Part shown: positions 1,774 to 64,000 of the stretch, piece by piece
Numbering within the stretch: the first letter of the stretch is position 1
How the letters are laid out: each line of letters begins with the position of its first letter
From: Candidatus Woesearchaeota archaeon
GTDB taxonomy: Archaea > Nanobdellota > Nanobdellia > Pacearchaeales > GW2011-AR1
Assembly (NCBI GenBank): GCA_964372205.1
Contig: CAYJQB010000001.1
Span: forward strand, 226,967 to 290,966
Length of the DNA: 64,000 nucleotides
Reading direction: 5' to 3'
Program-made: the position numbers and the translations under genes
The notes under the pieces: generated by a model
Databases searched by the model: none
What the model was told of the DNA's origin: nothing
Seen by the model: only the letters and a program-made list of their open reading frames with translations

Positions 1774-2037
1774 ATGAGTCTTCTGAAAAGAATTGAACCT
1801 TTCCCTAATCCAATTCCACGTGTGGACGAAGAATTAGAACCTCCTCCTCCAATGATTGATGTTCTGACATTTCAAGCACTAAGTGGAATTCCTCTTCCGA
1901 TAATTGTAGGATACATTGAAGAAAGAGCACAAAGGCATTATTCCCCTATCCCAATTTCACTGATAGCCCCTCAAGCCACATCAGATAGATCGATAATACT
2001 ATATTCCGGACCTGGATTGGACTATCAAGTTGATTAG
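1774..2037 (+). CDS. hypothetical Pro-rich small protein (doubtful)
   Basis: 87-aa ORF in a divergent intergenic region; no recognisable motif. Confidence 0.2.
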   Translation: MSLLKRIEPFPNPIPRVDEELEPPPPMIDVLTFQALSGIPLPIIVGYIEERAQRHYSPIPISLIAPQATSDRSIILYSGPGLDYQVD

Positions 2038-2072
2038 CCAAGCCTTAAATATATTTAATTCCAGATAGTCTT

Positions 2073-2537: not shown

Positions 2538-2541
2538 TATC

Positions 2542-2829
2542 TTAACTGCCTCTTGGAAAACTTTCCATGTATGCTGGTCCAGATCTGTAAGGAGCATCTA
2601 CCTCTTGAGCCGCTCTAAAGAAATCTTCTTTTATTTGGCTTGATCGATGTTCAGGTGCTCCAACAATTATCTCTGTAGGCATTGAATCGATAGCAGTTAA
2701 TCCTTCTAAAACATGATATCCTTTCTCTCTCAAAGGTCGTATTAACCTCTCCTTCTCTTCTGAACTGAACTTTCCTCCAACAACTCTATTTTGATCAAGA
2801 TCAAATCTCTGGTACACTGCATTTGTCAT
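2542..2829 (-). CDS. hypothetical protein
   Basis: 95-aa ORF, no motif recognised. Confidence 0.3.
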   Translation of the reverse strand: MTNAVYQRFDLDQNRVVGGKFSSEEKERLIRPLREKGYHVLEGLTAIDSMPTEIIVGAPEHRSSQIKEDFFRAAQEVDAPYRSGPAYMESFPRGS

Positions 2830-2853
2830 GAAAAACTCACTTTTTGTCCATAT

Positions 2854-3459
2854 TTAAATATTTGCGCTTTGATTGGCACCAAGTCTTCTTCCTGTTTTCA
2901 TATTCTCAATTATAATTCCAACTCTCTTCATCCTTGTTTCAGGCCTCTTCGCATGAAGTAGCCATCTGAAATACATTCTCTTTTGAGATGGGGGAAGTTT
3001 TTCAAAATTCTCCTTGGCTGTTTTATTCTTCTTTTTTTCAAGCTCCGCCTTCAAATCCTCTGGCATATCAGGATTCTTAGGTATTCCATGATCATGCGGT
3101 TTCTTAGTCAAACCGAGTTCAAACATCTCTTTTCCAAAATCAGACATTTTCCCTTGAGAAATCATCTCTCTAGCTCTTGCAAAAGTGTTATCGCTCCATC
3201 TGCTTGTCTTTTTTCTCTTAACAAATGTAACTCCATACTTTTCATCATCTATTCTTTTCAACGTTGTATCAATCCATCCAAAACATATTGCCTCATTCAT
3301 AGCAATACTTTGATTGAACATTCCTTTTCCAGTATGTTTTTTGTATCTTATTAGCAGAACTCTATCTTCTTTCAAGTGATTCTTTTCAAGCCATGCTCTC
3401 CACTGCTCAACATTTTCACAAGTGATTTGTTTTATTTTCTCTTTATTATTCATCATCAT
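2854..3459 (-). CDS. YdeI/OmpD-associated (OmdA-domain) family protein
   Basis: W..WL..NH at N-terminus, CFGWID motif, C-terminal LPPSQKRMYFRWLLHAKRPETRMKRV typical of the YdeI/OmdA family. Confidence 0.55.
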   Translation of the reverse strand: MMMNNKEKIKQITCENVEQWRAWLEKNHLKEDRVLLIRYKKHTGKGMFNQSIAMNEAICFGWIDTTLKRIDDEKYGVTFVKRKKTSRWSDNTFARAREMISQGKMSDFGKEMFELGLTKKPHDHGIPKNPDMPEDLKAELEKKKNKTAKENFEKLPPSQKRMYFRWLLHAKRPETRMKRVGIIIENMKTGRRLGANQSANI

Positions 3460-12526: not shown

Positions 12527-13426
12527 TTATTTACCGACGAGCTTAATGAGCACAGCTTTCTCTGCCCACATCCTGTTTTCAGCCTGATTATACACAATAC
12601 TTCTCTTTGAGTCCATCACTCCATCAGTCACTTCATGCCCCCTTCCAGCCGGAAGGCAATGCATAAACAACGCCTTTTTGCTTACATTGAACAATTTTTC
12701 GTTAACCTGGTAAGGCTTGAATATCTTCTCCCGAGACTTTTCCTGATTTGCAGGTATCTGATAACTCATCCAGCTATCCGTGTATATCACATCAGCATTC
12801 TGCACAGCTTTTTCAGCATCTTTCTCATAGACATACTTGACATTTCCAATAGCCTTAGGGTTAGGCATAAAATCTTTCCCAGAAGGGCAGGACACAACCA
12901 TCTTTGCCCCAATCTTTTCAGCTCCAAGAATCAAATCGTGAGTTACATTGTTGTTCCCATCACCCAAATATACTATTTTGATACCCTTTAACTTTCCAAG
13001 ATGTTCTTTGATTGTCATAAAATCTCCTAATATTTGGCAAGGATGATAGTAATTTGTTAACCCATTTATTATAGGCACATCGGAATTCAATGCCAGCTCT
13101 TCAATATCTCTATGCTCATACAGCCGAGCCATTACAACATCAACATATCTGCTTATAACTTTAGAAAAATCCTTTATAGATTCTTTTTTTCCAAGAGTCG
13201 AATCTCCTAAATTGTAGAAGATAGGATATCCCCCAAGCTGATGCATAGCCACCTCAAAGCTCAAATGTGTTCTTAACGAAGGTTTTGCAAATATCATAAG
13301 AAGAGTTTTCCCAGAAAGAGTTTTCATCTGTTTCTTAGGAGACTTCTTCAACTTAATTCCCAGATTAACTATCTCTAAAATTTCCTTTTCAGACAAATCT
13401 TTTATAGATAAAAGATGCTTTCTCAT
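12527..13426 (-). CDS. ornithine-carbamoyltransferase-family enzyme (OTC/PTC-like)
   Basis: Carbamoyl-phosphate motif region SLRTH (STRTR variant), HPCQ (HPxQ) and HCLP motifs typical of OTCases. Confidence 0.75.
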   Translation of the reverse strand: MRKHLLSIKDLSEKEILEIVNLGIKLKKSPKKQMKTLSGKTLLMIFAKPSLRTHLSFEVAMHQLGGYPIFYNLGDSTLGKKESIKDFSKVISRYVDVVMARLYEHRDIEELALNSDVPIINGLTNYYHPCQILGDFMTIKEHLGKLKGIKIVYLGDGNNNVTHDLILGAEKIGAKMVVSCPSGKDFMPNPKAIGNVKYVYEKDAEKAVQNADVIYTDSWMSYQIPANQEKSREKIFKPYQVNEKLFNVSKKALFMHCLPAGRGHEVTDGVMDSKRSIVYNQAENRMWAEKAVLIKLVGK

Positions 13427-42805: not shown

Positions 42806-43489
42806 ATGTACATAATAGGGGTGGACGATGCCGGAAGAGGTCCTTTAATTGGTCCAATGGTTTTAGCAGGGGTTTTGATAAAAACAGCAGACCAGGATTT
42901 CTTGAAAGAATCAGGAGTAAAAGACTCCAAAATGCTCACTCAGGAAAAACGTCTTGCTCTCGATGAATTAATCAAATCAAAATCCCTTGGATATAAAGCA
43001 GTTCTAGTTCCTCCAATCGAAATCGATGATGCAGTTCTCTCAGGAAGAAACTTAAACAATCTGGAAGCAATAAAATGTGCTGAAGTAATAGACTCCTTGA
43101 ATACAGAAGACATGCATGATAAAGAGATAAAGGTTATTGTAGACTGTCCATCTCCAAACACAAAAGCTTGGCAAGCTGTTCTCATCTCACATATAAAATA
43201 TTCTAAAAATCTAAAGATAAAATGTGAGCATAAAGCAGATGCGAATCATCCGTGTGTTTCAGCAGCATCTGTTTTGGCAAAATTAGCAAGAGAAGAAGCT
43301 GTAGCAGAAATCAAATCTCAATATGGGAATATAGGTTCAGGTTATCTAACAGACCCAGTAACTCAAGCATTCATAAAAGAAAAAAGCGCAGAACTTGAAA
43401 ACTCAGGCATATTCAGAAAATCATGGTCTACTTGGACTAATCTTGTCGCAGAAAAACAACAGAAGAAACTATTCGGGATATTCTTCTAG
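42806..43489 (+). CDS. rnhB: ribonuclease HII
   Basis: IIGVDDAGRGPLIGPMV N-terminal catalytic motif and DxxS...D region of RNase HII. Confidence 0.8.
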   Translation: MYIIGVDDAGRGPLIGPMVLAGVLIKTADQDFLKESGVKDSKMLTQEKRLALDELIKSKSLGYKAVLVPPIEIDDAVLSGRNLNNLEAIKCAEVIDSLNTEDMHDKEIKVIVDCPSPNTKAWQAVLISHIKYSKNLKIKCEHKADANHPCVSAASVLAKLAREEAVAEIKSQYGNIGSGYLTDPVTQAFIKEKSAELENSGIFRKSWSTWTNLVAEKQQKKLFGIFF

Positions 43490-44341
43490 TTTTTTCATCG
43501 CTAGCTTTATTGATTTGGAATTAGACGAAAATACTTTCCAAGGATTTTTCTCAAGATATCTTGAAATGCTTTTTATTGTATATTTATCAAATTTAAAATC
43601 TGGTTTAAGCTCATTCCAAGAGAGAGGCATTGCGATTGTTCCAGGCTCTTTTGCTCTTAATGAATAAGGCACGACTTTTAGTTGAGCTCTTGCGTTTCTC
43701 AAATAATCAATGAAAACTCTCCCTTTTCTCTTATTTATTCTCTGTTCTGTTGTGAACTTGTCAGGATTTATTTTTTCAATTATCTCAGCTATTCTTCTCG
43801 AAAACTTCTTTGTTTCATTAAACGTGACGTCTCTCTTTATAGGCACAATTATGTGAAAGCCCTTCTGACCGGTTGATAACAAATAACTCTTTAATTCTAG
43901 GGAGTCAAGAATCTTTTTTACTGCATTCGTTGCCTGAACTGCATCAGAAAGTTTTTTCTCATTCGGAGGATCAATGTCCCATACAACAACCTCCGGATAA
44001 TCAATTTTGTCAATCCTTGACAGCCAATGATGAAAAATCAGAGTATCTTGATTAGCAAGGTATACTAAAGTGTCTTTATCATTGCATACAACATATTCAG
44101 TTCCATTGATTTTCTTTGTTTTAATCCACTTAGGAAAATACCCCCCAGCATTTTTCTGATAGAAACACATTTTTCCAGCACCTTCAACACATCTCTCAAG
44201 AGCAATAGGTCTATCTTTCACATAAGGAAGAATTTTGTTTGAAACTTTAATGTAATAATTAATTACATCTTTTTTGGTTATCTTTGATTTAGGATAGATA
44301 ATCTTGTCAGGATGAGTGATTTCTACTTTTCCGATTTTCAT
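43469..44341 (-). CDS. LigD-type polymerase/primase (PrimPol) domain protein, stand-alone
   Basis: ITHPDKIIYP...ITKKDVINYY...DRPIALERC...FYQK motifs as in the NHEJ LigD Pol domain. Confidence 0.65.
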   Translation of the reverse strand: MKIGKVEITHPDKIIYPKSKITKKDVINYYIKVSNKILPYVKDRPIALERCVEGAGKMCFYQKNAGGYFPKWIKTKKINGTEYVVCNDKDTLVYLANQDTLIFHHWLSRIDKIDYPEVVVWDIDPPNEKKLSDAVQATNAVKKILDSLELKSYLLSTGQKGFHIIVPIKRDVTFNETKKFSRRIAEIIEKINPDKFTTEQRINKRKGRVFIDYLRNARAQLKVVPYSLRAKEPGTIAMPLSWNELKPDFKFDKYTIKSISRYLEKNPWKVFSSNSKSIKLAMKKLEEYPE

Positions 44342-44913
44342 TTTTTCTTCTTTCCTCTTGCAATCTGCTCAAGAGTTTTTCCAGACTTTACAGACTTATT
44401 TTCTCCAGCAATCTTCTTATTTGCAAAATCATCTTTCATTTTGAATAACAGCCAGTTTTTGTTTTGTCCTTTAAATCTTATTAGTGCATAAGCTCCATTC
44501 AGTTTCTTCCCTTCAAGAAACACTTCTATCATCCCCATTTCATAAGACTTCTTCATGTCAATAGGAGTTTCTTTTTCTCCTTTGAGGTTTATGAATTTAC
44601 CTTTGTCCCAGAGCATAACAGTTCCAGCTCCGTAATTTCCTTCAGGAATAATGCCTTCAAAGTTTCCATAGTCCATTGGATGTTCCTCTGTTTCAACAGC
44701 GAGCCGTTTATCGGTAGGATTATTAGAAATTCCCTTAGGCACAGCCCAGGATTTTAGCGCTCCTTCTATTTCTAATCTAAAATCATAATGTAACTGTGAA
44801 GCATCATGTTTCTGAACAACAAATACTCCTTTCTTCCCAGAGCTTTTCTTCACTTTCCATTTCGGCTCAGGAGTCTTATCGAATTTCCTCTTTTTTTCAT
44901 ATACTGTTGGCAT
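44338..44913 (-). CDS. LigD-type 3'-phosphoesterase domain protein, stand-alone
   Basis: FVVQKHDASQLHYDFRLE...LKSWAVPKG...EHPMDYGNFEGIIPEGNYGAGTVMLWD matches LigD PE domain motifs; 4-nt overlap with Pol gene. Confidence 0.7.
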   Translation of the reverse strand: MPTVYEKKRKFDKTPEPKWKVKKSSGKKGVFVVQKHDASQLHYDFRLEIEGALKSWAVPKGISNNPTDKRLAVETEEHPMDYGNFEGIIPEGNYGAGTVMLWDKGKFINLKGEKETPIDMKKSYEMGMIEVFLEGKKLNGAYALIRFKGQNKNWLLFKMKDDFANKKIAGENKSVKSGKTLEQIARGKKKK

Positions 44914-45023
44914 CCTTTAAGGAGGAAAAAGGTATTAATTAATGTTTTCCAATAAAATATGTCTTATAACGACTAACAAAAGCCCTAAATAATCTTTAAA
45001 TAACTCATATCCCAATAGATATC

Positions 45024-47894
45024 ATGACTCACATAAAAAGGTTGGTGATACAAGGATTCAAGTCATTCGCTCCAAAGACAGAGATACACTTCGGCCAAGG
45101 TATAAACGTCATAGTTGGTCCAAATGGCTCTGGTAAAAGCAACATCTCAGACGCATTATGCTTTGTTCTCGGTAGATTGTCTATAAAGTCCATGAGAGCT
45201 GCAAAAGCAAGCAATCTCCTTTTCATGGGGAGCAAATACACAAAGCCTGCTAAAGAGGCAAGCGTTGAATTGGTATTTGATAACACTAATAAGACTTTTT
45301 CTTTTGAAGCTCCAGAAGTATCTCTTAAGAGAGTTGTCAGACACAACGGTCAGAGCATATACAAAATAAATGACGAAGTAAAAACAAGAGCTGAGATTGT
45401 AGAAACGCTTGCACATGCAGGAATAGATCCTCATGGTTTTAATCTAGTTCTTCAGGGCCAGATACAAGCAATTGTGAAAACTCACCCTGAAGAGAGAAGA
45501 AAAATAGTAGAAGAAGTTGCAGGAATCTCCATCTATGAAATGAGGAAGGAGAAGTCTATAAAAGAATTAGACAAAACAGAAGAAAGACTAAAAGAAATAT
45601 CTACAATATTAAGAGAAAGAACAGCATTTCTAAGAAATCTTGAAAAAGAAAGAAGTCAGGCTCTAAGATACAAAGAGTTAGAGACTACTATAAAGAGATG
45701 TAAAGCATCCATCCTAAGCAGAAGAATACAAGACAAACAGAAAGAAGTTGAGAATATCCAAAAAACAATTCTTGAAAAGACTGCTCAAAGAGACAAAATA
45801 AAGGAATCAATCAGACAAACACAGGATTCTATAGATGAGATGAATGAGAACATTTCCAAAATCAATAAACACATTCAAAGGTCCACAGGTTTGGAACAGG
45901 AAACTCTCAGGACACAGATATCAAACTTAAGAGCAGAGATAGAAGGCCTGAAAGTAAGGAAAGAGAATTTTGAGCATAGACAACAGGAAATAGAAAGAAG
46001 GATAGAAGAGATGCAAAAATCCATTCCAGAGAATGAATCAGAAATTCTTGAACTAAGGAAAGAATCTCCAATGGTTGCTAAAAAACAAGAAGAGCTGAAA
46101 AAGAAAAAAGAAGAACTTAAGCAGATAGAAGAGGAAAAGAAGCAAGTATACACATTAAGAACAGAATTAAACGCAGTAAAAGAGCGCATTAGAGACAAAG
46201 AACTCAATCTAGAAAGACTAAGCTCGCAATCAGATTCTATTCTAAAGCAGATAGAAGAATACTCTACAGATATAGAATATGAAACAAGAGAGTCATGTGA
46301 GAAAGAAATATCTTCCTTAAAGAAGTCTGTCCAAGATTACAAGATTAAGATTGAAGAGTTAGTAAAGTTAGAGTTAGAGCAGAACAGAAAAATAACCTCA
46401 TCAGAGACTACAATTGCTTCTTCAGAAAAGATAAAATCTCAAGTCCAGAGCATAGAAGTTTGCCCCCTTTGCCAGAACAAGATGACTCCAGATCATCTCT
46501 CACACGTTCTATCAGACTCAGATAGCAAGATAGAAGAATCAAGAAAAATAATCTCAATTTCAGAAGAAGAGATATCAAAGATATTTAACTCCAAGAAAGG
46601 TTTTCAGGAAGAGCTTCAAAAATTAGGTATGAGGCAATCCAAATTGGAAAACGAGCTCCATACTCATAGGATTATCACAGACAAAAAATCACAGATTAAA
46701 TCTTTACTAGAACAGGAAGAAAAGCTGAAAACAGAAATAAAGTCTCTTCAAGTAAAAAGAGATAATCTTCAATCCCATACATTAGACACTTCGAGAATAG
46801 ACGAGAAATATGGAGCCAAGATTATGGAGATAGAGGAAATTTCTGCAAGAACAACAGAAGACATCGACAAGACTTTGATGTACAAAGAAAGAGAGCTTGA
46901 AAGAATGAAAGAAGTCATCAAGCTAAGCAAGCGTGATTTAGGTGAGATGGAGCAGGAAGTCACAGAGATAGCAGAAACAATAGAATCTAAGATTGAAACT
47001 TTGGAGAAGAAAGAAGAAGAGGATGCAGAGCTTACAGCTAAGTTCAAGAAGCTTTTTGCAGAGAGAGACAAGCTTCAGGAGATAATCCAGGAGAAGAGTT
47101 ACGAGTTAAGTAGTTCTCAAACTTCAGCAGCACAGATTGAAGAGCAAGTCAACTATTTGAAGGTTGGAAATGCAAAATTAAGCGCCGAAAGAGAAGCAAT
47201 AGAGATGGAGTTAAAAGAGTTTTCAGGAATTGAGCTGATAAAATCGCCACTTTCCTTTCTTGATGAAAAATTGAAGAAATCTCAGGAAGCTATAAGCACA
47301 ATAGGTCCTACAAACATGAGGGCTTTAGAAGTATATGATGGAGTAAAGGAAGAATATGACAAAGTCTATGAAAAAGTGCAAACAATAGAAAATGAAAAAA
47401 ATGAGATTCTAAGAATTATAGAAGAGATAGACAAGAAAAAAAAGAAATCATTCATGAAGACTTTCAACGGGATAAGTGATCTCTTCAGTAGCAACTTCTC
47501 TAAACTTTCTTCAAAAGGTCAGGCTTTCTTGGAGTTAGAGGACAAAGAGGACATTTTCAACGGAGGAGTGAATATAGTAGTAAAACTCGCAAAGGGAAAA
47601 TATTTCGATGTCACTTCTCTATCTGGAGGAGAACAGACTCTTATCGCAATATCTCTCCTATTCGCCATTCAAGAATTCAGGCCATATCACTTTTATGTTC
47701 TAGATGAGATAGATGCAGCCCTAGACAAAAGAAACTCAGAAAGGTTGTCTGCATTACTTAGAAAATATATGAAAGATGGTCAGTATATTGTAATTACTCA
47801 TAATGATGCTCTCATAATGGACTCTGATATCCTATACGGAGTTAGCATGCATGAGGGTGTTTCTAAAATCTTAAGCCTCAAGCTAAGTGAGTAA
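45024..47894 (+). CDS. smc: SMC-family ATPase (short, 956 aa) with mid-coil CPLC motif
   Basis: N-terminal GFKSF...GPNGSGKSN Walker A and VLGRLSIKSMRA SMC signature, C-terminal LSGGEQTLIAISLLFAI ABC signature and YVLDEIDAALD D-loop; long coiled coils; VCPLCQ at the midpoint. Confidence 0.7.
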   Translation: MTHIKRLVIQGFKSFAPKTEIHFGQGINVIVGPNGSGKSNISDALCFVLGRLSIKSMRAAKASNLLFMGSKYTKPAKEASVELVFDNTNKTFSFEAPEVSLKRVVRHNGQSIYKINDEVKTRAEIVETLAHAGIDPHGFNLVLQGQIQAIVKTHPEERRKIVEEVAGISIYEMRKEKSIKELDKTEERLKEISTILRERTAFLRNLEKERSQALRYKELETTIKRCKASILSRRIQDKQKEVENIQKTILEKTAQRDKIKESIRQTQDSIDEMNENISKINKHIQRSTGLEQETLRTQISNLRAEIEGLKVRKENFEHRQQEIERRIEEMQKSIPENESEILELRKESPMVAKKQEELKKKKEELKQIEEEKKQVYTLRTELNAVKERIRDKELNLERLSSQSDSILKQIEEYSTDIEYETRESCEKEISSLKKSVQDYKIKIEELVKLELEQNRKITSSETTIASSEKIKSQVQSIEVCPLCQNKMTPDHLSHVLSDSDSKIEESRKIISISEEEISKIFNSKKGFQEELQKLGMRQSKLENELHTHRIITDKKSQIKSLLEQEEKLKTEIKSLQVKRDNLQSHTLDTSRIDEKYGAKIMEIEEISARTTEDIDKTLMYKERELERMKEVIKLSKRDLGEMEQEVTEIAETIESKIETLEKKEEEDAELTAKFKKLFAERDKLQEIIQEKSYELSSSQTSAAQIEEQVNYLKVGNAKLSAEREAIEMELKEFSGIELIKSPLSFLDEKLKKSQEAISTIGPTNMRALEVYDGVKEEYDKVYEKVQTIENEKNEILRIIEEIDKKKKKSFMKTFNGISDLFSSNFSKLSSKGQAFLELEDKEDIFNGGVNIVVKLAKGKYFDVTSLSGGEQTLIAISLLFAIQEFRPYHFYVLDEIDAALDKRNSERLSALLRKYMKDGQYIVITHNDALIMDSDILYGVSMHEGVSKILSLKLSE

Positions 47895-49184: not shown

Positions 49185-49296
49185 ATTTAATTAATATTTC
49201 AACCCAGAAGTCCTTTATAAACTTTATGGTAATGACATAAAAACGTAATTATAGAGTAACGAAAAAGTTTATAAAATATACCTTGGTATACCTTAT

Positions 49297-54813: not shown

Positions 54814-55197
54814 ATGAATGATGAAAAAGATTGGAAGAAGAAACTAACAAGGGAGCAGTATAAAATTCTTAGAGGAAAAGGAACTGAGAAAGCATTTACA
54901 GGAAAGCTTCTTCACAATAAAGAAAAAGGAACTTACAATTGTGTAGCATGTGGAAATCCACTTTTCTCGTCGGAAACAAAGTTTGATTCAGGCTCTGGCT
55001 GGCCTAGTTTTTGCGATGTTATCTCAAAAGGTAATGTAAAACTTGTAGAAGATAAATCTCTTGGAATGAGCAGGACAGAAGTTGTATGTGCAAAATGTGG
55101 AAGCCATCTAGGTCATGTTTTCGACGATGCTCCGCACATGCCAACAGGAAAACGTTTTTGTATAAATTCCTGCGCACTCGATTTCAAGAAAAAATAA
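54814..55197 (+). CDS. msrB: peptide methionine sulfoxide reductase MsrB
   Basis: Two CxxC pairs (CVACG...CAKCG), GWPSF and HLGHVF motifs. Confidence 0.8.
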
Positions 55198-55389
55198 TTA
55201 GCAGTATTTGCTAAAACTATGCTCTTCTCTTCTCTTCTCTAATTGTTTGGTTTCTTTTTTCACAAGAGTATCCATTTCTGACTTCATGAACTTCTCGACT
55301 TTTTTGCTCATGCTGTATCCTTCCTTCTTACAGAACTCTTTAAATTTTTCATAGGTTTCGTTATCAATACTAAATGTTTTGATTCCCAT
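55198..55389 (-). CDS. hypothetical small protein
   Basis: 63-aa K/E-rich ORF. Confidence 0.3.
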   Translation of the reverse strand: MGIKTFSIDNETYEKFKEFCKKEGYSMSKKVEKFMKSEMDTLVKKETKQLEKRREEHSFSKYC

Positions 55390-55500
55390 AGTTCACCTCT
55401 TTGCACATTCTTTTTTAATTAAGATTATATATTTTCAGAGATTTTAAAGCTTTCTAAAACCTCCAAATTTAAAAATTGGTTAATTATTAATTAATTTTAA

Positions 55501-55926
55501 TTAAACAACAGAATATCCAGAACCAACTCTTTCAGTATCTCTAACCTCATGAAGAATACGTACAGCCCTCGAAAAGCTGAATTCAGGGTGCGTTCTAATA
55601 AATTCTGCTTTTTCCGAACCTAAGGGATCATCTGGCCTTTGATATGAATGTCTGCCAAATCCTCTATCTGGAGGATGATAGTCTGGACAACCTGCGACAA
55701 TCTTTCCCAAAATGTCACGTGCAGAATCATACTCGCGATGCGCAAGTTCTTTCAAAGCCGCCAAGAAAAGCAAGTCCATTCTTACTTGTAAGTTTTCAGA
55801 ACCAGGGAATCTATCAAGAGCAAGCAAATCATCAATTACAGAAACTGGATCTCCCTGACCTAATCTCCTACTACTTCCCCTTCCAGGAATCACAGAATGA
55901 TGGCTACTGTATTTTCTAGCACCCAT
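55501..55926 (-). CDS. hypothetical protein
   Basis: 141-aa ORF between EF-2 and EF-1alpha genes; composition atypical (more G+C) for this window. Confidence 0.4.
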   Translation of the reverse strand: MGARKYSSHHSVIPGRGSSRRLGQGDPVSVIDDLLALDRFPGSENLQVRMDLLFLAALKELAHREYDSARDILGKIVAGCPDYHPPDRGFGRHSYQRPDDPLGSEKAEFIRTHPEFSFSRAVRILHEVRDTERVGSGYSVV

Positions 55927-55975
55927 ATTACCTTAAAGAAAAATGGCTTTATAAAATTGTTTGTAATAAATTTAA

Positions 55976-58165
55976 TTACTGGTTTTCACTCAAACCCTTT
56001 CTTTCTCTAATCTTTCTTATAGCGTTTTCTTGAAGTTCTCTTGGAAGAGGCTTGAACTGCTGGTCCATTAAACTGGAAATTCCTCTGCCTTCAGTTGCGC
56101 TTCTTAAATCATTACTCCATCCAATCATCTCTGCAACAGGAATTTGTGCTTTAATCATGACTTGCCCACTTTCTTGCTGAACATCTTGTAATACTCCTCT
56201 CTTGCTTGCAACTAAGTTTGTAAGAGTTCCCATGAATTCAAGTGGCCCTTCAACAAGATGTGTCTGAATAGGTTCAAGCATTCCAGCCCCAGCTTGCTTC
56301 ATCGCTTCATGCATTCCAAGTCTTACAGAAGGATATATTTGAGCAGGCCCTCTGTGCATGTGGTCTGTGTGAATCTTAGCGTCATGCAATATGAATTTAG
56401 TCTTCATCATAGGTTCCTTTGCAAGAGGTCCGCCATTGATTACAAGTCTCCATCCATCCATAATAGATTCTATAATATCTCCAAGCAAAACAAGTCCTCT
56501 TGTTCTGTCCTCAAAAATGTTACCTTTATAGATATCTTTCACCTGTCTAGCTTCATCCGAAGACATTCCAGCTTCCTCGAGTTTCTTCCAAAGCTCTTCA
56601 GCTTTCTTCTTTGGCCTTCCTTCAGGAATTTCATTGCCGTCTATTTTTTTATAAACTTCATCTTCAAGAGTTTCTATACTAAAGAAGAATATGTTGTGCC
56701 CATTAGGTGTTCTTGCTTCAATCTTATCACTCTTCTTTGTTACAGTCTCTCTGTAAACAACTATCGGAGGCCCTGTTTTTACCTCAAGCCCTTTTTCACT
56801 CTTTATTCTTCCTTCAATAATCTCTAAGTGCAGTTCTCCCATTCCAGATATCAAGTTCTCACCAGTTTCTTCGTTGATTTCAATCTTAATGCTAGGATCT
56901 TCCTTTCCAACTTTTCTAAGAACATCAATAAGCTTAGGAAGATCAGCAGATCTAGTTACTTCAATAGATTTAGTGATTACAGGCTGGAAGATGTGTTTTA
57001 TCTCCTCAAATGGTTGTATATCCTCTGTAGAGATAGTATCTCCAACTTCTGTATTCAATCCTACAATAGCTACAACATTTCCAGCAGGAATCGTTTCAAC
57101 CTGTCTCGGCTTGATTCCTTCATAAACTAAAACCTGTTGTATCCTAGTCTTCTTCTTAGTCAATGTAGAGTACACTTCAGCACCATTCTGCAAAGTTCCA
57201 GAGAAAAGTCTTCCAGCTGCTACTTCCTTCCCAACTCTCGGATCTATTATTATTCTTGTAATAACGAAAGCCAACTTTCCGTTCTTATCACAGGTTACAA
57301 GATTTTGACCAAGTTCGCTCTCAATCTCTCCACTCCATATTTTAGGAATCCTATATTTTTGAGCGTCTACAGGATTAGGAAGATGTTTTACAACCATGTC
57401 AAGAATTACTTCATTCAATGCCGCATTTTTCCAGACCCAGTCCTGTCTTTCAGCTTCTTCCATCTCATATATTCTATAAATATCTTTGAAGCTTATCCCT
57501 TTCTTTTTCATGAATGGAACAGACATAGCCCAATTTTCTCTAGCAGAGCCAAAAGCAACACTTCCTTCGTTGATGCTAACTTGCCATTTCTCAGCCAATG
57601 CAGGTTCTGCTATCTGCTGGACAAGATGATTGAATTGGTTGAATATTTTGATGAATCTTTCCTGCATCTGTTCAGGAGTCACCTTAAGTTCTTTGATAAG
57701 TCTATCAACTTTATTGATGAACAACACTGGTTTAACCCTTTCTCTAAGTGCCTGTTTCAATACAGTCTCTGTCTGAGGCATTATCCCTTCAACAGCGCAC
57801 ACAAGAACAACTGTTCCATCAATGGCTCTCATAGCTCTTGTAACATTTCCAGAGAAGTCAACGTGTCCGGGAGTGTCAATAAGATTAATTAAATATTCTT
57901 CACCGCCGAATTCATGGGGCATAGAAACATTCGCAGCGTCAACAGTCATAAGTCTTTCCTGCTCATCTGCATGTTGCCAAGTAGTCATTCCCTCTTCCAA
58001 ATCTCCTGCATTTTTTGCAGCCATCATACCAGCCGCAGCTAACAAATTGTCAGTGAAAGCAGTTTTTCCATGGTGGATATGCGCGCTTGTCGCTATGTTT
58101 CTTATATTCTTCTGATTACTAATCAATCTGCTTATTTTGTGTAGTCCTGTTTCTTTTTCTGCCAT
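55976..58165 (-). CDS. fusA: translation elongation factor 2 (aEF-2)
   Basis: AHIHHGKTAFTD G1, DTPGHVDF, NKVD, domain IV with diphthamide-region GRGISS...; 729 aa. Confidence 0.95.
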   Translation of the reverse strand: MAEKETGLHKISRLISNQKNIRNIATSAHIHHGKTAFTDNLLAAAGMMAAKNAGDLEEGMTTWQHADEQERLMTVDAANVSMPHEFGGEEYLINLIDTPGHVDFSGNVTRAMRAIDGTVVLVCAVEGIMPQTETVLKQALRERVKPVLFINKVDRLIKELKVTPEQMQERFIKIFNQFNHLVQQIAEPALAEKWQVSINEGSVAFGSARENWAMSVPFMKKKGISFKDIYRIYEMEEAERQDWVWKNAALNEVILDMVVKHLPNPVDAQKYRIPKIWSGEIESELGQNLVTCDKNGKLAFVITRIIIDPRVGKEVAAGRLFSGTLQNGAEVYSTLTKKKTRIQQVLVYEGIKPRQVETIPAGNVVAIVGLNTEVGDTISTEDIQPFEEIKHIFQPVITKSIEVTRSADLPKLIDVLRKVGKEDPSIKIEINEETGENLISGMGELHLEIIEGRIKSEKGLEVKTGPPIVVYRETVTKKSDKIEARTPNGHNIFFFSIETLEDEVYKKIDGNEIPEGRPKKKAEELWKKLEEAGMSSDEARQVKDIYKGNIFEDRTRGLVLLGDIIESIMDGWRLVINGGPLAKEPMMKTKFILHDAKIHTDHMHRGPAQIYPSVRLGMHEAMKQAGAGMLEPIQTHLVEGPLEFMGTLTNLVASKRGVLQDVQQESGQVMIKAQIPVAEMIGWSNDLRSATEGRGISSLMDQQFKPLPRELQENAIRKIRERKGLSENQ

Positions 58166-58264
58166 TTTGTTCCAAAATTTTAGAATAATTTCTGATAGGA
58201 GAAACGCTTTTTAAACGTTTTGCTGTTTATATAAAAAAAGAGAAAGAAATAGCACTTTAATTAT

Positions 58265-58495
58265 TTACTTGAATAATTTTACAAGCACCCACAGTCCTGA
58301 CAACCCTACAAGCAAGTAAATGATTGCAGCAAGCCAAGGAAATCCGCCAAATATAAGTGCGACAATATCCCAGCTGTAAGATACTCCGCTGAAGCTTGTT
58401 ATTCCAACAAGTCCCCAGTTAATTGCACCAATAACAACTAGGACATAAGCTATCCAGTCAGTTGCGCTTCTTTTCATAGAAACACCTCCTTTCAT
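58265..58495 (-). CDS. DUF378-family small membrane protein
   Basis: INWGLVG ... two TM helices typical of DUF378. Confidence 0.5.
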   Translation of the reverse strand: MKGGVSMKRSATDWIAYVLVVIGAINWGLVGITSFSGVSYSWDIVALIFGGFPWLAAIIYLLVGLSGLWVLVKLFK

Positions 58496-58559
58496 ATATT
58501 AACCAGATTTGTCGAATATATAAACATTATCTAGAGACTCAAATTGTAGAACAAACTCC

Positions 58560-59153
58560 TTATCTTGCAGCATCAGCCTGCTTCTCAGACTCGTTCTTTT
58601 TCTGCATAGCGTAACCTTCCATATTACCATCAGAAGCAAGCATTATTTCATTAGCTAGCGATTCAGCCATTTTTCTTTTTTTTCCGAACGATTTTTGGTA
58701 AGCTCCCTGAACAAGCCATCTCACAGCTAAACTGACTCTTCTCATAGGAGATACATCAACAGCTTGAGGGTATCTTGCTCCACCATATTCAATAGTAGTT
58801 ATCTCATCTCTTGGAGAACATGCTTCAATTGCCTTCACAAGAATTTGTAGAGGGTTTTCTTTCTTTTTCTCTTCTATTATCTTTAGAGCATCCATAACAG
58901 TCTTCATGTTAGTGTTATATTTTCCTGAAGCCCAGTGAGTAATTATTCTGTGTTTCTTTCCAATATGTCCAGGGACGGCAATTCTGTTAGCAATCCTTTC
59001 TATTATGCTCACTCTTGCGCTTGTAAACTTTCCAAGATTTCTTCCATGGGACTTTATTAAAAGACGTGCATCCAGATTGATATATGGTTTAAGAGAAGGA
59101 TCTTTTACTGCTATCCCTCCAGCATCATACACACCAAATATTTTGAATTCCAT
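58560..59153 (-). CDS. rps7: 30S ribosomal protein S7
   Basis: Archaeal S7 length and conserved VKAIEACSPRDEITT... block; position downstream of S12. Confidence 0.9.
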   Translation of the reverse strand: MEFKIFGVYDAGGIAVKDPSLKPYINLDARLLIKSHGRNLGKFTSARVSIIERIANRIAVPGHIGKKHRIITHWASGKYNTNMKTVMDALKIIEEKKKENPLQILVKAIEACSPRDEITTIEYGGARYPQAVDVSPMRRVSLAVRWLVQGAYQKSFGKKRKMAESLANEIMLASDGNMEGYAMQKKNESEKQADAAR

Positions 59154-59155
59154 TA

Positions 59156-59578
59156 TTATCTTCTTCCTTTCTCTATCTTTCCTTTAACTAAAAGATGAAG
59201 GGGTTGGTCGTTAACTTTAATCACTTGATATCTTATCCCAGGAATATCTCCTTTGGATCTTCCCATTTTACCACCAATTCTTTCAATGAGAACTTCATCA
59301 TGTTCATCTACAAATTTTTGAGCTAGATTTCTAGGTATAAACGCGCCAACCTGAACGCCATTCTTTATCAACTGAACTTTGCAACATTTTCTCATAGCAG
59401 AGTTTGGCTGTTTTGCTTCTTTCTGGAATTTTTCAGTCACAATTCCTTTAGCTTGCCAGCTTCTTCCAAGAGGATCAGATTTCTCCTTCAGTTTCATGAC
59501 TCTATTCTTGTAAGTACGCTTGCTCCATCTGAATTTGTTCCTATTGTTCTTCAGTTTCCTTGCATTGTTTAATCCCAT
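59156..59578 (-). CDS. rps12: 30S ribosomal protein S12
   Basis: [10 protein letters not shown]...PNSAMRKC...NGVQV...IPG motif set of S12/S23. Confidence 0.9.
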
Positions 59579-59629
59579 TTTATGATTTTAATAAACGCTG
59601 TTTATAAATCTTCGTGGAGAAATCGCTTT

Positions 59630-60529
59630 TTAAAGATTACTATGGGCTTGAGGGGGAATAAAGTGCTTCCTCCTCCCTTTTCCATTTTTGATATTCCAGT
59701 ACTTTCTGAACTCGCAAAGTGCCCCCTCGATATTAGTTATAGAAAGATATGGATAATTTGAAAATGCTTTCTCATACGCAATGCTTTCCCATTTTTCTGA
59801 AAGAGAATCTTTTTGCATCTCATATAGCTCATACAGCCTATGCTTAACTTCTTTATTGCTTAATTTCTTTCCATAGATTATTTCTAATCCCCACTTTGCT
59901 CCAGGCCCAACGTTCACAAAGTCGTTATCATTCCAGCCCTGCCTAAAGAATCCTAAGTAAGTCAAATCCGTCCATATTTCACACGCAAGGAACGGACCAA
60001 CCATCGGAATTCTTTTTAATATCTCGAAAGACTCTTCAGGAGTGCTACTTTGGTCTATTCTTTTTATTATTTCACTAGAATTGTTGGAAAGAATTTTCAA
60101 ATTGTTTAGGACACTAACATGTTTATCTTCACCTTTTTTCCCTGAAATAATGTAAGCATTGTTGAACAAAGGTTTACCCAATTTTTTCATCCTATCGAAC
60201 TTTTTTAGGATTTCAGCTTTAACTCCATCGTCAAACTTCTTAAACGGCTCTATCTCCAATTCCTCATACAATCCGTGTCTGTTAAAAAATCTGTAAAATA
60301 CAACATTGAGAAGAATTGATTTCCTGTCACTCAATTTGTTTAGTTTTTTCAATAAATAAATGGTGCACTTGTCAAGCTCCCTATACATATTGATTACTTT
60401 ATATTTCTGTAGAATTTTATCCTCAGTCCAAGGGGAACGTTCTTTTAGAACAAATCTCTTATGCCAAATTAAATGTCTTCTGTAAATGAAATCAAAAAAC
60501 TCTTGTTTTAAATTTTCTCGCACAGGCAT
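59630..60529 (-). CDS. 299-aa protein resembling the alpha-glutamyl/putrescinyl thymine pyrophosphorylase (aGPT-Pplase) / DNA base hypermodification family; assignment tentative
   Basis: N-terminal FFDFIYRRHLIWHKRF...PWTEDKILQKYKVINMYRELDKCT resembles the conserved FxxERHxI...PWTxDxIL..Y.F.NVYRExD block of that family (from memory); start codon overlaps the nusA stop. Confidence 0.4.
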   Translation of the reverse strand: MPVRENLKQEFFDFIYRRHLIWHKRFVLKERSPWTEDKILQKYKVINMYRELDKCTIYLLKKLNKLSDRKSILLNVVFYRFFNRHGLYEELEIEPFKKFDDGVKAEILKKFDRMKKLGKPLFNNAYIISGKKGEDKHVSVLNNLKILSNNSSEIIKRIDQSSTPEESFEILKRIPMVGPFLACEIWTDLTYLGFFRQGWNDNDFVNVGPGAKWGLEIIYGKKLSNKEVKHRLYELYEMQKDSLSEKWESIAYEKAFSNYPYLSITNIEGALCEFRKYWNIKNGKGRRKHFIPPQAHSNL

Positions 60530-60942
60530 TACACAATCTTTAGCTCTTTGCCAAAGTAATCTTCCATTATCTTTGAAAGTTCTATCAAGCGCCTTTTGTT
60601 TCTTCCTATAAGGGCTGCTTTTCCGATTGAGCCAGCTGTTAAGATTATATGTCCTTCTTTTACTTCAAGTGATTTGAAACTTACTGGGTCAACTATATCC
60701 TGGATGAATCTTTGCACATCTCGATTATCTCTTGCTTCCTTGACAACCCTTATCTTTTTTCCCAAAGTCTCCTGAATCATCTTTATGTTCTTTCCGTTGT
60801 CTCCAAGAGCTTGCCTCATCATACTTCCGGGAACAACATATATGATGGAATTGTTATAAACAAAACAATCTTTAGTATTTACTCTAGCGACTCTTCTGAA
60901 CAGGTTGATATACCTAATAGTCTGCATATTGATTGTAGTCAT
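60529..60942 (-). CDS. nusA: archaeal NusA-like KH-domain transcription termination factor
   Basis: Two KH motifs (VVPGSMMRQALGDNGKNIKMIQETLGKKIRV and AALIGRNKRRLIELSKIMEDYFGKEL). Confidence 0.8.
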   Translation of the reverse strand: MTTINMQTIRYINLFRRVARVNTKDCFVYNNSIIYVVPGSMMRQALGDNGKNIKMIQETLGKKIRVVKEARDNRDVQRFIQDIVDPVSFKSLEVKEGHIILTAGSIGKAALIGRNKRRLIELSKIMEDYFGKELKIV

Positions 60943-60943
60943 C

Positions 60944-61183
60944 TTATCTTCTTATCCCAAATATCTCTGATCGGAATTCTAGTCCAATCTTTTTTGCAAT
61001 TTCATCTTTTGAAAACTCTGAAGTATCAAACTTTATTTTGTTCGCAGCAAGAATTTTTTTTATTTCAGCACGGCAATCTGCGCTTACAATTGCTCTCTCA
61101 ATTTGATTAGACTTTTTCAAGCACTCTCTGATTCCAAAAAAAATCTTTCGAGAGTCTATAAATTTTTTCAATTCATCAACCAT
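60944..61183 (-). CDS. rpl30e: 50S ribosomal protein L30e
   Basis: 79-aa L30e/L7Ae-fold protein in the canonical position between rpoA and nusA. Confidence 0.65.
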   Translation of the reverse strand: MVDELKKFIDSRKIFFGIRECLKKSNQIERAIVSADCRAEIKKILAANKIKFDTSEFSKDEIAKKIGLEFRSEIFGIRR

Positions 61184-61246
61184 TTTATCTAAAACCTATT
61201 CAACGAATTAGTTTATAAATTTATCTTTAAACTTAGTCAGTTCGTT

Positions 61247-64000
61247 TTATTTTTTATGCTCAAGAAGTTTTTTATCGACGAGAGGACCAGTGACTCTTAC
61301 TAATAATCCAGGTAATCCAGTTCCAATAGGTACAGGTTGATTTAACATTATGTTTTCAATAACTGATGCAAGTTCATCTCTCTTGCCTTGGATTGTTGCG
61401 TTAACAAATTCCTTATCAGGAGTTTCAAAGGCTGCTCTAGCAAAAACGCTTGATTTTTCCGAGACAATTCCCATTCTAGTTACTCCTTTGACAACTCCGC
61501 TTGAAGTCATAGCATCAGCAATAAGGTCAAGATGTCTTATGTTGATGTCAAGACCTTGGCTGTCAATGACCTTTTTCAATTCACCAACTATTGTTTGTCT
61601 TGCAGCTTCAATCCCAAGAACTTCAGCAGTTTCATGTATGTCATTAGAATAGATTTTATTCTTGTCAACACCCTTTACTTCAACTACTTCCTTCAGATTA
61701 GTTCCTGCAGTAAGTACAACATAATCCTTATCTCTCTTAGAAACAACCACTTGAGAGATATTCTTAACTCCAGAGATTATTGTCTTCTTAAGTTTCTCTT
61801 TTATCTTGAACATTTCCCTAAATGACTTCTCTCCAAGACCGACGATTATTTTGTTGGTGTCTTTTGCTTTAGCCTCGAATCCTTTATCATTCAGTCTATC
61901 TACAACTTTCTGGATTCCTGAATGGATATTTCTTAGTCCATTGTTGTCCAATTCAATCTCAATTTTCTTTCCAGAAAAGTCAATGCTGATTTCTTTGGAT
62001 ATTTCTTCGATAGAAACTTCTTTTATCTTTTCAGCAATTACTCTTGCGTCTTTTTCATTATTCGCTTCTTTCTCAAGATATATCTCCATCAATGGAGTGG
62101 AAGGTTTCTTCCTTGCATCAAATATCTCAATAAGTCTTGGTAATCCGAGTGTAATCTGCATTTCTGCGACTCCGGCAGAGTGGAATACGTTCAAAACCAT
62201 CTGTGTTGAAGCTTCTCCAAAGCTTTGCGCAGTGACAACTCCTACAGATTCACCAGGAGCTACTTGCTTGTTTAAGTGAAGGCTCGCAACATCCAATCCA
62301 TCTCCTCCATATAGATACTGGATTATATTTCCAGATGCATCTCTGACAGTTCCATCATATTCAGCTCTCAAATCTTGAAGAGCGCTTACAAGTCTTCTGT
62401 AAAGATAACCAGATTTAGGAGTTCTAAGTGCGGTATCCATAAGTGAGTCTCTTCCAGTTATTGCCCCAAAGAAGAACTCTGTAGGTTTCAATCCCTCAAA
62501 GAATGACGACTTAATGAATCCTCTAGCTTCTGGGCCTATATCTTTTTTATGGAAGAATGAAAGAGTTCTGTCAGTATAACCGAAGCTGATTCTCTTATTC
62601 CAGAGTATCTGTTGTCCGACACAACATCCAATCTGTGTTATGTTAAGCATGCTACCTTTAGCTCCAGGAGTAATCATTTTGTTGATATTAGCCTCTGCAG
62701 GGAATGTTGATTTTACAACTCTTCCAATCTCAGATCTGACTTCGTTAAGTACTTGTGATATTCTCAACTCCCTAGTTTCTTCAATACTCTTTCCAGGCAC
62801 AGGAGTAAGCTTTCCATTCTCAGCTTCTTTTATTATCTCTTGAGTCTTTTTCTCAGCCTCCGAGATTATTTCCTTTGTTGTGTCTTTAACCTTAGGAGCA
62901 ACATTCAAGTCTTGTGCTGAAAGAGTGTATCCTACTCTTGAGATGTGTGTAGTTCCTAGAGTGAACGCCTTCTTTATCGCTAGAACAGTTGCATCCTTTC
63001 CAAACTCTTTGTCCAGATGTTTTATCATTACACCATCTTCCACTCCAAAAGTTTTTTCTCCAGTTAAGTCATTAGGAATCTTTATCTCCGTACCCTTCGG
63101 CAAAATCTCTACAAAGATATCTTTTCCAGAAACTGTTTTTTTCTTAATTCCACTTACAATTCCAGCAGAATACAATAGTTGTTGCGCATATTCTCTGCTG
63201 TAATCTTCCCTACCTAGAAGATACAATCCTGTAACTGCATCAGTAATACATCCAACAAGGGCAGTATTATTCTTTGAAGATATGATATTCTGGTTTATTT
63301 CCAAAAGCTTTATTGCCTCAGCTCTTGCTTCTTCTGTCTGAGGGGAGTGGATGTTCAATTCATCTCCGTCAAAGTCAGCGTTGTAAGGGAAAGTCACAGC
63401 AGGATGTATTCTAAAAGTCCTGTGAGGAAGAATTCTAGCTCGGTGAGCCATGAGACTTTGTTTGTGAAGTGAAGGGTGTCTGTTCAGTAAGACAATGTCT
63501 CCATCTTGCAGATGTCTTTCAATTTTGTATCCTGGGACTATCTCATTGCACAAATCTTCTTTCAACTCATCAGTTATCTTCTTTTTCTTTCCATCAGGTC
63601 TAACAACATAGTTTGCTCCAGGATGTTCACTTCCTTTTCTTATTAGCTTCTTCATCCTTTCCATGTTCATGCTTGTGACATTTTCAGCCACAGTGATTAT
63701 TTCTGCTATTTCGAGAGGGATTCCAATCTCATCAATATCAAGGTAAGGGTCAGGAGAACCTACAGTTCTTCCAGAGAAGTTGACTCTTTTTCCAGCAAGA
63801 TTTTTTCTGATTCTTCCTTCTTTTCCTTTAATCCTTTCAGTTATAGTCTTCAAAGGCTGGCCAGATCTATGTCTAGCAGGAGGAATTCTCGAAGTGTTAT
63901 TATCAAAATATGTTGTTACGTGATACTGAAGCAAGTCCCATAAGTCCTCAATGATAACTTCAGGAGCTCCTGCGTTAAGATTCTCCCATAATCTTTGATT
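61247..64000 (-). CDS. rpoA: DNA-directed RNA polymerase largest subunit, apparently fused A'/A'' (5' end outside window)
   Basis: Catalytic NADFDGDE, bridge-helix region (TALRTPKSGYLYRRLV) and trigger-loop region (AQSFGEASTQMVLNVFHSAGV) in one uninterrupted 895+ aa frame that continues past position 64000. Confidence 0.85.
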   Translation of the reverse strand, partial: NQRLWENLNAGAPEVIIEDLWDLLQYHVTTYFDNNTSRIPPARHRSGQPLKTITERIKGKEGRIRKNLAGKRVNFSGRTVGSPDPYLDIDEIGIPLEIAEIITVAENVTSMNMERMKKLIRKGSEHPGANYVVRPDGKKKKITDELKEDLCNEIVPGYKIERHLQDGDIVLLNRHPSLHKQSLMAHRARILPHRTFRIHPAVTFPYNADFDGDELNIHSPQTEEARAEAIKLLEINQNIISSKNNTALVGCITDAVTGLYLLGREDYSREYAQQLLYSAGIVSGIKKKTVSGKDIFVEILPKGTEIKIPNDLTGEKTFGVEDGVMIKHLDKEFGKDATVLAIKKAFTLGTTHISRVGYTLSAQDLNVAPKVKDTTKEIISEAEKKTQEIIKEAENGKLTPVPGKSIEETRELRISQVLNEVRSEIGRVVKSTFPAEANINKMITPGAKGSMLNITQIGCCVGQQILWNKRISFGYTDRTLSFFHKKDIGPEARGFIKSSFFEGLKPTEFFFGAITGRDSLMDTALRTPKSGYLYRRLVSALQDLRAEYDGTVRDASGNIIQYLYGGDGLDVASLHLNKQVAPGESVGVVTAQSFGEASTQMVLNVFHSAGVAEMQITLGLPRLIEIFDARKKPSTPLMEIYLEKEANNEKDARVIAEKIKEVSIEEISKEISIDFSGKKIEIELDNNGLRNIHSGIQKVVDRLNDKGFEAKAKDTNKIIVGLGEKSFREMFKIKEKLKKTIISGVKNISQVVVSKRDKDYVVLTAGTNLKEVVEVKGVDKNKIYSNDIHETAEVLGIEAARQTIVGELKKVIDSQGLDINIRHLDLIADAMTSSGVVKGVTRMGIVSEKSSVFARAAFETPDKEFVNATIQGKRDELASVIENIMLNQPVPIGTGLPGLLVRVTGPLVDKKLLEHKK

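Follow-up and report, generated by a model that had tools for sequence, protein, structure and literature searches.

A stand-alone PF18723 protein attached to the NusA unit of a Woesearchaeota archaeon: family assignment, conserved Cys-Glu signature and possible cellular role

Introduction

Phages that hypermodify the thymidines of their DNA employ a multi-enzyme pathway, the demonstrated steps of which need a dUMP hydroxymethylase, a P-loop 5-hydroxymethyldeoxyuridine (5-hmdU) kinase and a clade-2 transferase (PMC8989533). Experimentally, hypermodification activity has been demonstrated for the P-loop kinase, PF18748, and for the clade-2 transferase, PF18724. Only PF18723, or clade 1, among the recurrent components of the hypermodification clusters lacks an assigned activity. 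In phage M6 the clade 1 counterpart by synteny is gp55, which was left out of the lysate reconstitution with the kinase and transferase steps retained, and to which no function was assigned in that study (PMC8989533). Cellular homologs of the phage family have already been noted in the phage literature (PMC5889632). Here, a cellular member is described, termed X, the 299-aa product of a gene between nusA and rps12 on a 64,000-nucleotide stretch (hereafter the window) of contig CAYJQB010000001.1 from a Candidatus Woesearchaeota archaeon. X is a genuine gene under purifying selection and a full-length member of PF18723, and a Cys-Glu signature that runs through the whole family argues for catalysis.

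Results

X belongs to PF18723, formerly aG/PT-PPlase clade 1

Against Pfam, X matches PF18723 (HMUDK_hel, the 5-hmdU DNA kinase helical domain) over its full length with an E value of 2.4e-50 and 171.9 bits (cut-off 25), such that residues 8-281 lie on profile positions 4-275 of 281, and this is the only Pfam domain in the protein. The best PHROGs family is phrog_2396, which is of unknown function (E 4.6e-48), while NCBIfam gave no match and a sequence search of the PDB returned only chance matches to designed proteins and no sequence-level relative. The initial annotation had likened the N-terminus of X, which begins MPVRENLKQEFFDFIYRRHLIWHKRF...PWTEDKILQKYKVINMYRELDKCT, to the aGPT-Pplase family, a name borne by none of the Pfam matches of X. 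This apparent clash is one of naming only, because proteins described as aGPT-Pplase clade 1 score as PF18723. The phage SN1 gene SN1_020, annotated as ‘aGPT-Pplase clade 1,’ matches PF18723 at 1e-55, its ‘clade 2’ neighbour matches PF18724, now ‘ADDT,’ and SP10 gp186 combines a PF18748 kinase domain in its N-terminal half with a PF18723 region in its C-terminal half, which appears as ‘gp186C*’ under the name aG/PT-PPlase1 in Table 3 of Lee et al. 2018 (PMC5889632). The proposed resemblance was therefore right in substance, X being a member of a family that was called aG/PT-PPlase clade 1 in 2018 and has since been renamed. No literature was found under the Pfam name or accession of PF18723.

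The relationship to the phage proteins is distant and spans the whole protein: a profile of 34 archaeal and candidate phyla radiation (CPR) sequences aligns with SN1_020 over the full length (hhalign probability 99.1%, E 1.4e-18), and by tblastn homologs of X were identified in 309 phage records, with 23-29% identity to phage proteins and an E value of 2e-14 for SP10 gp186. A sample of this spread includes the known thymidine-hypermodifying phages M6, SN1 and SP-10, as well as ViI-like Salmonella phages, phiRSL1 and PhiJL001. With phage clade 1 (SP10 gp186C, SN1_020/M6 gp55, phiRSL1, PhiW-14 and PhiJL001 gp19), X has in common the motifs PWT.D, N.[YF]RELD, GPF.A.E..TDL, GPGA..GL and IE..LCEF.KY, including the invariant Cys-Glu pair. 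Unlike these proteins, X is a stand-alone cellular protein: searches for a PF18748 kinase, next to it or fused, for a clade-2 transferase, for Nmad5 and (in the window) for a hydroxymethylase all came back empty, and it stems from a separate, tightly conserved clade of DPANN archaea and CPR bacteria with housekeeping contexts. In NC_019487.1 (SP10 gp186) and PP931173.1 (PAKlein3), PF18723 proteins are annotated as ‘terminase small subunit,’ a label also carried by phrog_800 and one that looks like a propagated mis-annotation.

X is a genuine gene under purifying selection

The 299-aa open reading frame (ORF) between nusA and the S12 gene was found at the position initially annotated and with the quoted N-terminus, and lies on the minus strand (Table 1). 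Its ATG indeed overlaps the nusA stop, the two codons forming a TAATG junction with one shared base, and this 1-nt overlap recurs in a close relative (locus L001). The gene for S12 follows shortly after, with the stop codon of X ending at 59630 and rps12 starting at 59578, so that the spacer measures 51 nt rather than the 50 nt reported before. At least 120 homologs with 49-100% identity were found, the GC content of X is that of its neighbours (0.32-0.38), and comparison with the 78%-identical ortholog of L001 (6001-6894) yields a dN/dS of 0.18. X is thus a genuine gene under purifying selection, and the neighbour-like GC content together with the dN/dS value speaks against a chance ORF or a recent foreign insertion.

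X evolves much faster than its surroundings, since its amino-acid identity to L001 is 78% (81% at the nucleotide level) compared with 94-99% for the neighbouring genes, and its dS, 0.73, is roughly double the values found for the genes on either side (0.11-0.46). The high dS may possibly reflect a weaker constraint on codon usage or another history, for example allelic replacement.

A glycosylase-like fold with a family-wide Cys-Glu signature

The AlphaFold2 model of X obtained from the alignment of 34 sequences is all-alpha, with a predicted local distance difference test score (pLDDT) of 91 and a predicted template modelling score (pTM) of 0.88; a model from the single sequence reached a pLDDT of 37 and was discarded in favour of it. 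The predicted fold resembles that of the helix-hairpin-helix (HhH) DNA glycosylases, the matches being HhH-GPD glycosylases and gp46, a clade-2 amino-acid:DNA transferase, which is the closest solved structure. Among the viral models of BFVD, the template modelling (TM) score is 0.80 for the C-terminal domain of the SP10 5-hmdU DNA kinase and 0.79 for phiRSL1, compared with about 0.5 for ADDT proteins. Within the HhH-like element F180 is invariant throughout the family, and G178 and D188 are nearly so. An alignment of 45 sequences, which unites the cellular clades, the stand-alone phage proteins and the kinase-fused SP10 domain and extends down to 24% identity, leaves R18, R50, D53, F180, P209, G210, C272, E273 and K276 invariant, all of which are present in X. 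Three of these residues fall into a candidate catalytic motif near the C-terminus (Table 1), in which the codon for Cys272 was checked at 59714-59716.

The clade-2 transferases (PF18724; PaMx11 gp46/PUGT, PDB 8z2m, and M6 gp51) show no significant sequence similarity to X, and X has no Pfam ADDT match at E ≤ 1. When the PF18723 family was compared with clade 2 by hhalign, one segment of 21 columns was aligned (E 0.44), setting IEGALCEF against VETVLCKW of the ADDT family and thereby pairing E268...C272 of X with E243...C247 of gp46. In clade 2 the conserved Cys and a neighbouring Glu are essential, and the Cys has been proposed to attack the pyrimidine C6 (PMC8989533). The gp46-DNA structure shows a metal, bound by Glu243 and Thr244, in contact with the thymine O4, and Cys247 clamping the base (PMC11472151), and clade 2 is metal-dependent (PMC13458397). 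Taken together, PF18723 proteins would probably be enzymes with a Cys-based active site related to that of clade 2, that is, more than the mere ‘helical domain’ of their Pfam name. By contrast, the amino-acid donor site is not expected to be conserved: when the HhH motifs GfGPWigfK of gp46 and mvGPFlacE of X are compared by eye rather than by a formal alignment, the glycine-binding Trp146 and Lys150 of gp46 correspond to Phe180 (invariant) and Glu184 (invariant within DPANN/CPR) of X.

Two further groups come into question as relatives by fold. The HhH-GPD glycosylases (EndoIII, AlkA, Mag1, Ogg and MutY) are 8-15% identical to X, which has no Pfam HhH-GPD match. Members of the DPANN/CPR clade carry D201 (at least 90% conserved) and D203 (invariant, about 25 residues after the hairpin) at the spacing of the glycosylase Asp, but neither is conserved in the phage members, and in place of a catalytic Asp it is the invariant Cys that stands as the family-wide candidate catalytic residue. 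QNG1/DUF2419, a queuosine-5′-phosphate salvage enzyme, is 5-11% identical to X, has no sequence-level relationship to it and acts on another class of substrate.

Relatives of X and their genomic contexts

Within PF18723, which comprises 4,347 clusters at 50% identity, X forms a tight clade (49-78% identity) with proteins from DPANN archaea (Pace-, Woese- and Nanoarchaeota) and from CPR/Patescibacteria. The 150 nearest representatives have a median length of 310 aa and none contains a Walker A motif; in longer homologs (381-600 aa) PF18723 is the sole recognisable domain, again with no Walker A motif. The archaeal homologs are basic (pI 8.7-9.7). More distant homologs (34-40%) come from metagenome-assembled genomes of uncultured Alphaproteobacteria, many from gut samples (L028-L064), and are found either in the order X, SLT_2 transglycosylase, DPBB/SPOR, PBP5 and Tmk, or in the order Hsp33, one ORF, RecX, X and RuvC. 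PF18723 thus reaches another group of apparently small-genome bacteria, where it lies beside recombination genes.

The neighbours of X homologs were counted within ±3 ORFs of 21 non-redundant DPANN/CPR loci, and the commonest Pfam families are HD_3/YfbR-like, thymidylate synthase, DHFR and NUDIX; AAA_18 and Cytidylate_kin P-loop kinases also recur, and so do helicase and AAA families of a generic kind. The HD gene is the immediate upstream neighbour in four loci, which represent three lineages, and is co-directional in three of these loci and divergent in the archaeal L017. Ten of the 16 archaeal loci and four of the 7 CPR loci have at least one gene of deoxynucleotide metabolism within ±6 kb, compared with a chance expectation of roughly 0.2 per locus (about 12 such genes in an 800-gene genome and about 13 genes per ±6-kb interval, ignoring clustering and phylogenetic non-independence). 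The densest example is L007 (Candidatus Magasanikbacteria), where the homolog is embedded in a dNTP-metabolism cluster of Tmk, a deoxyribosyltransferase-like protein, a ThyA-like protein, an HD 5′-deoxynucleotidase, DHFR, dUTPase, a dNMP-kinase-like protein and dCMP deaminase. Other homologs lie between RFC-small and NUDIX, and RFC-large and HerA (L003), near EndoV, RNase HII and NUDIX, next to ribonucleotide reductase and NrdR (L069), next to ribosomal S10, directly against PolB (L071) or near an integrase. The same trio of thymidylate synthase, 5′-deoxynucleotidase and PPlase1 has been reported independently from pelagiphages (PMC9599517).

At the archaeal loci, the homologs have canonical ThyA genes as neighbours (E 9e-79), paired with DHFR; this favours ordinary dTMP synthesis over the production of 5-hmdU. 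A different arrangement is seen in L007 (3484-6903) and L018 (3457-6897), where a divergent ThyA-like protein of 585-594 aa (Pfam E 7e-10, about 340 extra residues) is encoded co-directionally with a split HD 5′-deoxynucleotidase and the X homolog, and the opposite strand carries canonical ThyA fragments, DHFR, dUTPase and dCMP deaminase. This layout, which is like the phage order hydroxymethylase-HD-clade 1, may possibly point to a pyrimidine hydroxymethylase encoded by a CPR bacterium.

Search for hypermodification partners

No partner of the phage pathway was detected. In the 64-kb window, tblastn with seeds for the SN1 kinase, ADDT, Nmad5, hydroxymethylase and HD proteins gave nothing, and the seeds for kinase (PF18748-type), ADDT and Nmad5, run against the ±6-kb flanks of 59 loci of cellular homologs, likewise found no match. 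A weak match of a phage ADDT at 44102-44293 is spurious, as the ORF encodes a LigD primase-polymerase. X itself is not a complete 5-hmdU DNA kinase (5-HMUDK), the P-loop kinase domain being neither fused nor adjacent.

The putative junction between the NusA and S12 units

The gene order around X is that of the canonical archaeal rpoA-L30e-NusA/S12-S7-EF2 cluster, which differs here in the insertion of X between nusA and rps12 and of an ORF for a DUF378 membrane protein between rps7 and EF-2. With the latter, the str cluster contains a second non-canonical gene, which indicates that it has accepted another extra gene in this lineage. The 79-aa ORF in the position of rpl30e has no Pfam L30e/L7Ae match (best HeH, E 0.13), so that its label derives from position alone. 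Whether X occupies the same place in relatives had also been raised in the initial annotation, and the answer is divided: the order NusA-X-S12 is found in one close relative (L001, 78% identical), but never among homologs of 68% identity or less.

The spacer between X and rps12 contains a TATA-like octamer preceded by a putative TFB recognition element (BRE), and 50 of its 51 bases are identical in L001, compared with the 81% nucleotide identity of X. The octamer, the palindrome TTTATAAA, occurs at 11 sites in the window against 4.9 ± 2.1 expected (59601-59608, 61212-61219, 55948-55955, 49214-49221 and 7 others), and the L30e-like ORF and two other minus-strand genes have a copy 22-37 nt before their start codons, a spacing that fits archaeal TATA boxes if the mRNAs are leaderless or have very short leaders. 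There is no such element before nusA or X, both of which abut or overlap their upstream genes. rps12 thus appears to have its own conserved TATA-like promoter, and the cluster would comprise two transcription units, [L30e-like-NusA-X] and [S12-S7-DUF378-EF2], with X as the last gene of the first. The earlier view that X is co-transcribed with core genes would accordingly hold for the putative L30e-NusA-X unit, but not for rps12. X would then mark the junction of two transcription units, an insertion-tolerant spot, rather than the interior of an operon. An Rfam scan of 55000-64000 found no known RNA element.

Table 1. Positions of X, its predicted elements and other genes mentioned in the text, in window coordinates.
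Feature	Position	Strand	Evidence or remark
Gene X, stand-alone PF18723 protein, 299 aa	59630-60529	minus	ATG-initiated ORF; Pfam E 2.4e-50
Candidate catalytic motif E268-G-A-L-C272-E273-F-R-K276	59702-59728	minus	C272, E273 and K276 invariant in the 45-sequence alignment
HhH-like element, residues 173-191 (IPMVGPFLACEIWTDLTYL)	59957-60013	minus	model: helices 164-172 and 179-191 around a hairpin
TAATG junction, nusA TAA and X ATG sharing 1 base	60527-60531	minus	plus-strand bases c-a-t-t-a
nusA, archaeal KH-domain NusA-like protein, 137 aa	60529-60942	minus	Pfam KH_2, KH_5; 99% identical in L001
79-aa ORF at the rpl30e position, first gene of the putative L30e-NusA-X unit	60944-61183	minus	position only
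TATA-like box TTTATAAA	61212-61219	minus	in the 63-nt gap that follows rpoA, 29-36 nt before the L30e-like start
RNA polymerase largest subunit (rpoA)	61247-64000	minus	in L001 at 1849-5283
X-rps12 spacer, 51 nt, BRE/TATA-like CGAAGA-TTTATAAA	59579-59629 (TATA 59601-59608)	minus	TATA 23-30 nt upstream of the rps12 ATG
rps12, first gene of the S12-S7-DUF378-EF2 cluster	59156-59578	minus	Pfam Ribosom_S12_S23, E 2e-37
rps7	58560-59153	minus	ORF list, Pfam, syntenic L001 genes
DUF378 membrane-protein ORF, 76 aa, between rps7 and EF-2	58265-58495	minus	also in L001 at 8207-8419
EF-2	55976-58165	minus	ORF list, Pfam, syntenic L001 genes
RNase HII	42806-43489	plus	
LigD primase-polymerase	43469-44341	minus	
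LigD 3′-phosphoesterase	44338-44913	minus	
SMC/Rad50-like ATPase with zinc hook	45024-47894	plus	
Aspartate carbamoyltransferase (pyrB)	12527-13426	minus	

Other genes of the window

In most archaea the largest subunit of RNA polymerase is split into A′ and A″. Here, it is a single protein of 1144 aa with Rpb1 domains 1-5, as judged from L001 and from the part of the gene that lies in the window; an apparent internal start of rpoA at 63934 is an artefact of the window edge, the frame being open to base 64000. A group of DNA-repair genes (42806-47894) includes modules of the non-homologous end-joining type in a small-genome archaeon, and the presence of pyrB indicates that de novo pyrimidine synthesis is at least partly kept in this small genome.

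Discussion

The reading preferred here, to which we give about even confidence, is that X is a selected, stand-alone cellular PF18723 protein that serves as a Cys-based, base-flipping housekeeping enzyme tied to dTMP supply. Such an enzyme would use the HhH element to flip a uracil- or thymine-type base out of the DNA, like its clade-2 relatives, whereupon the thiolate of Cys272 would attack the pyrimidine C6 and so enable chemistry at C5, with Glu268 and Glu273 as acids or metal ligands, a metal being possible. Its task would be one of housekeeping in reduced genomes, that is, the surveillance, repair or processing of bases of the uracil, 5-hydroxymethyluracil (5-hmU) or thymine type in connection with dTMP supply, and would be distinct from the multi-enzyme hypermodification pathway of phages. 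A bolder proposal, which we consider rather unlikely, is that the stand-alone clade 1 proteins of DPANN and CPR are housekeeping enzymes whose Cys-dependent chemistry at C5/C6 is directed at bases of the thymine family, either in cellular DNA or in the pool of deoxynucleoside monophosphates (dNMPs). Such enzymes might, for instance, process or repair 5-hmU or U directly, or introduce a thymine-derived modification into self-DNA at a low level.

Several points weigh against the preferred reading. An activity of clade 1 (PF18723) has never been demonstrated, even in phages, and the M6 reconstitution kept its kinase and transferase steps when gp55 was omitted (PMC8989533), so that the domain could be non-catalytic. 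The overall similarity between clades 1 and 2 is not significant (hhalign E 0.44) and the motif correspondence is short. The substrate could be a free nucleotide instead of DNA, QNG1 having the same fold and acting on free nucleotides. The genomic context amounts to guilt by association, with a rough enrichment estimate over loci that are not phylogenetically independent, and the locus of X itself in the window has no neighbour of nucleotide metabolism. The co-transcription and the promoters are read from sequence alone, and the partner search covered 64 kb of a contig of about 0.66 Mb, so that partners could be encoded elsewhere in the genome.

Among the alternatives, an action of X on free deoxynucleotides, in the salvage or pool sanitation of thymidine-type dNMPs in nucleotide scavengers, is rather unlikely; it draws support from the soluble enzymes encoded nearby and from the precedent of QNG1/DUF2419, in which a glycosylase fold serves to process a free nucleotide. 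On the other hand, X retains the HhH hairpin and many conserved Arg and Lys residues, the archaeal proteins have basic pI values, DNA is the substrate of all the closest structural relatives (gp46, the SP10 kinase and DNA glycosylases), and some homologs lie in replication or recombination contexts (RFC, PolB, RuvC, RecX). That X could be a non-catalytic module, which binds DNA or presents the base for a kinase or another enzyme encoded elsewhere, is unlikely: conservation of the Cys-Glu pair and of charged residues down to 24% identity is more reminiscent of an active site than of a scaffold, Walker A motifs are absent from all 150 nearest representatives and the 59 cellular loci have no phage-type kinase in their ±6-kb flanks. 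Yet the Pfam name ‘helical domain,’ the fusion of the domain to a kinase in SP10, its position as the next gene after the kinase in SN1 and M6, and the ability of the M6 kinase to work without clade 1, as would be the case for an accessory specificity factor, are consistent with such a role.

The initial annotation had suggested that X belongs to a thymidine-hypermodification pathway by which the archaeon marks its own DNA, as in phages M6, ViI, SP10 and PhiW-14, and this has not been borne out. The family is indeed present in the hypermodification clusters of those phages, has an invariant Cys-Glu that may correspond to that of the proven clade-2 transferase, and at a CPR locus is paired with the divergent 594-aa ThyA-like protein and an HD phosphohydrolase in a phage-like layout. 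However, the window yielded neither a hydroxymethylase nor a kinase or transferase, the ±6-kb flanks of the 59 cellular loci are devoid of kinase, transferase and Nmad5 genes, ThyA at the archaeal loci is canonical and paired with DHFR, and clade 1 (gp55 in M6) was dispensable in the reconstitution. Beyond family membership, hypermodification in this archaeon is not supported by positive evidence, which leaves self-marking a distinctly unlikely explanation. Least probable is a role in anti-phage defence, for example through recognition or excision of 5-hmU-type bases in phage DNA. It is suggested by a validated Escherichia coli system with a 5-hydroxymethyluracil-kinase domain and by aGPT-Pplase systems that are predicted to be defensive (PMC13092281), as well as by the glycosylase-like fold, but the E. 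coli domain may be a P-loop kinase instead of PF18723, neither X nor an alphaproteobacterial homolog matches a PADLOC family at E ≤ 0.1, the genes around the homologs belong to core housekeeping rather than to defence islands, and the conservation between archaea and CPR (49-78%) is very high, unlike that of fast-evolving defence genes.

What this locus adds to the phage literature is a strongly conserved DPANN/CPR clade whose nearest representatives have no kinase module, the thymidylate-metabolism neighbourhood of this clade, the lineage-specific attachment to the NusA unit, and a family-wide Cys-Glu signature that argues for catalysis. For annotation, the labels ‘nucleotide kinase domain-containing protein’ and ‘terminase small subunit’ mislead for these proteins, and X by itself is no evidence for hypermodified DNA. 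The combination of a kinase-less cellular clade, the Cys-Glu signature, thymidylate neighbours and attachment to the NusA unit suggests that the domain acts as an independent enzyme and has a role in the cell, and the DPANN/CPR clade offers small, simple proteins suited to biochemical assay. Should housekeeping C5/C6 chemistry hold true, it would constitute an unrecognised thymidylate or DNA-base step in ultra-small symbiotic archaea and bacteria, and would give PF18723 its first function, phages included.

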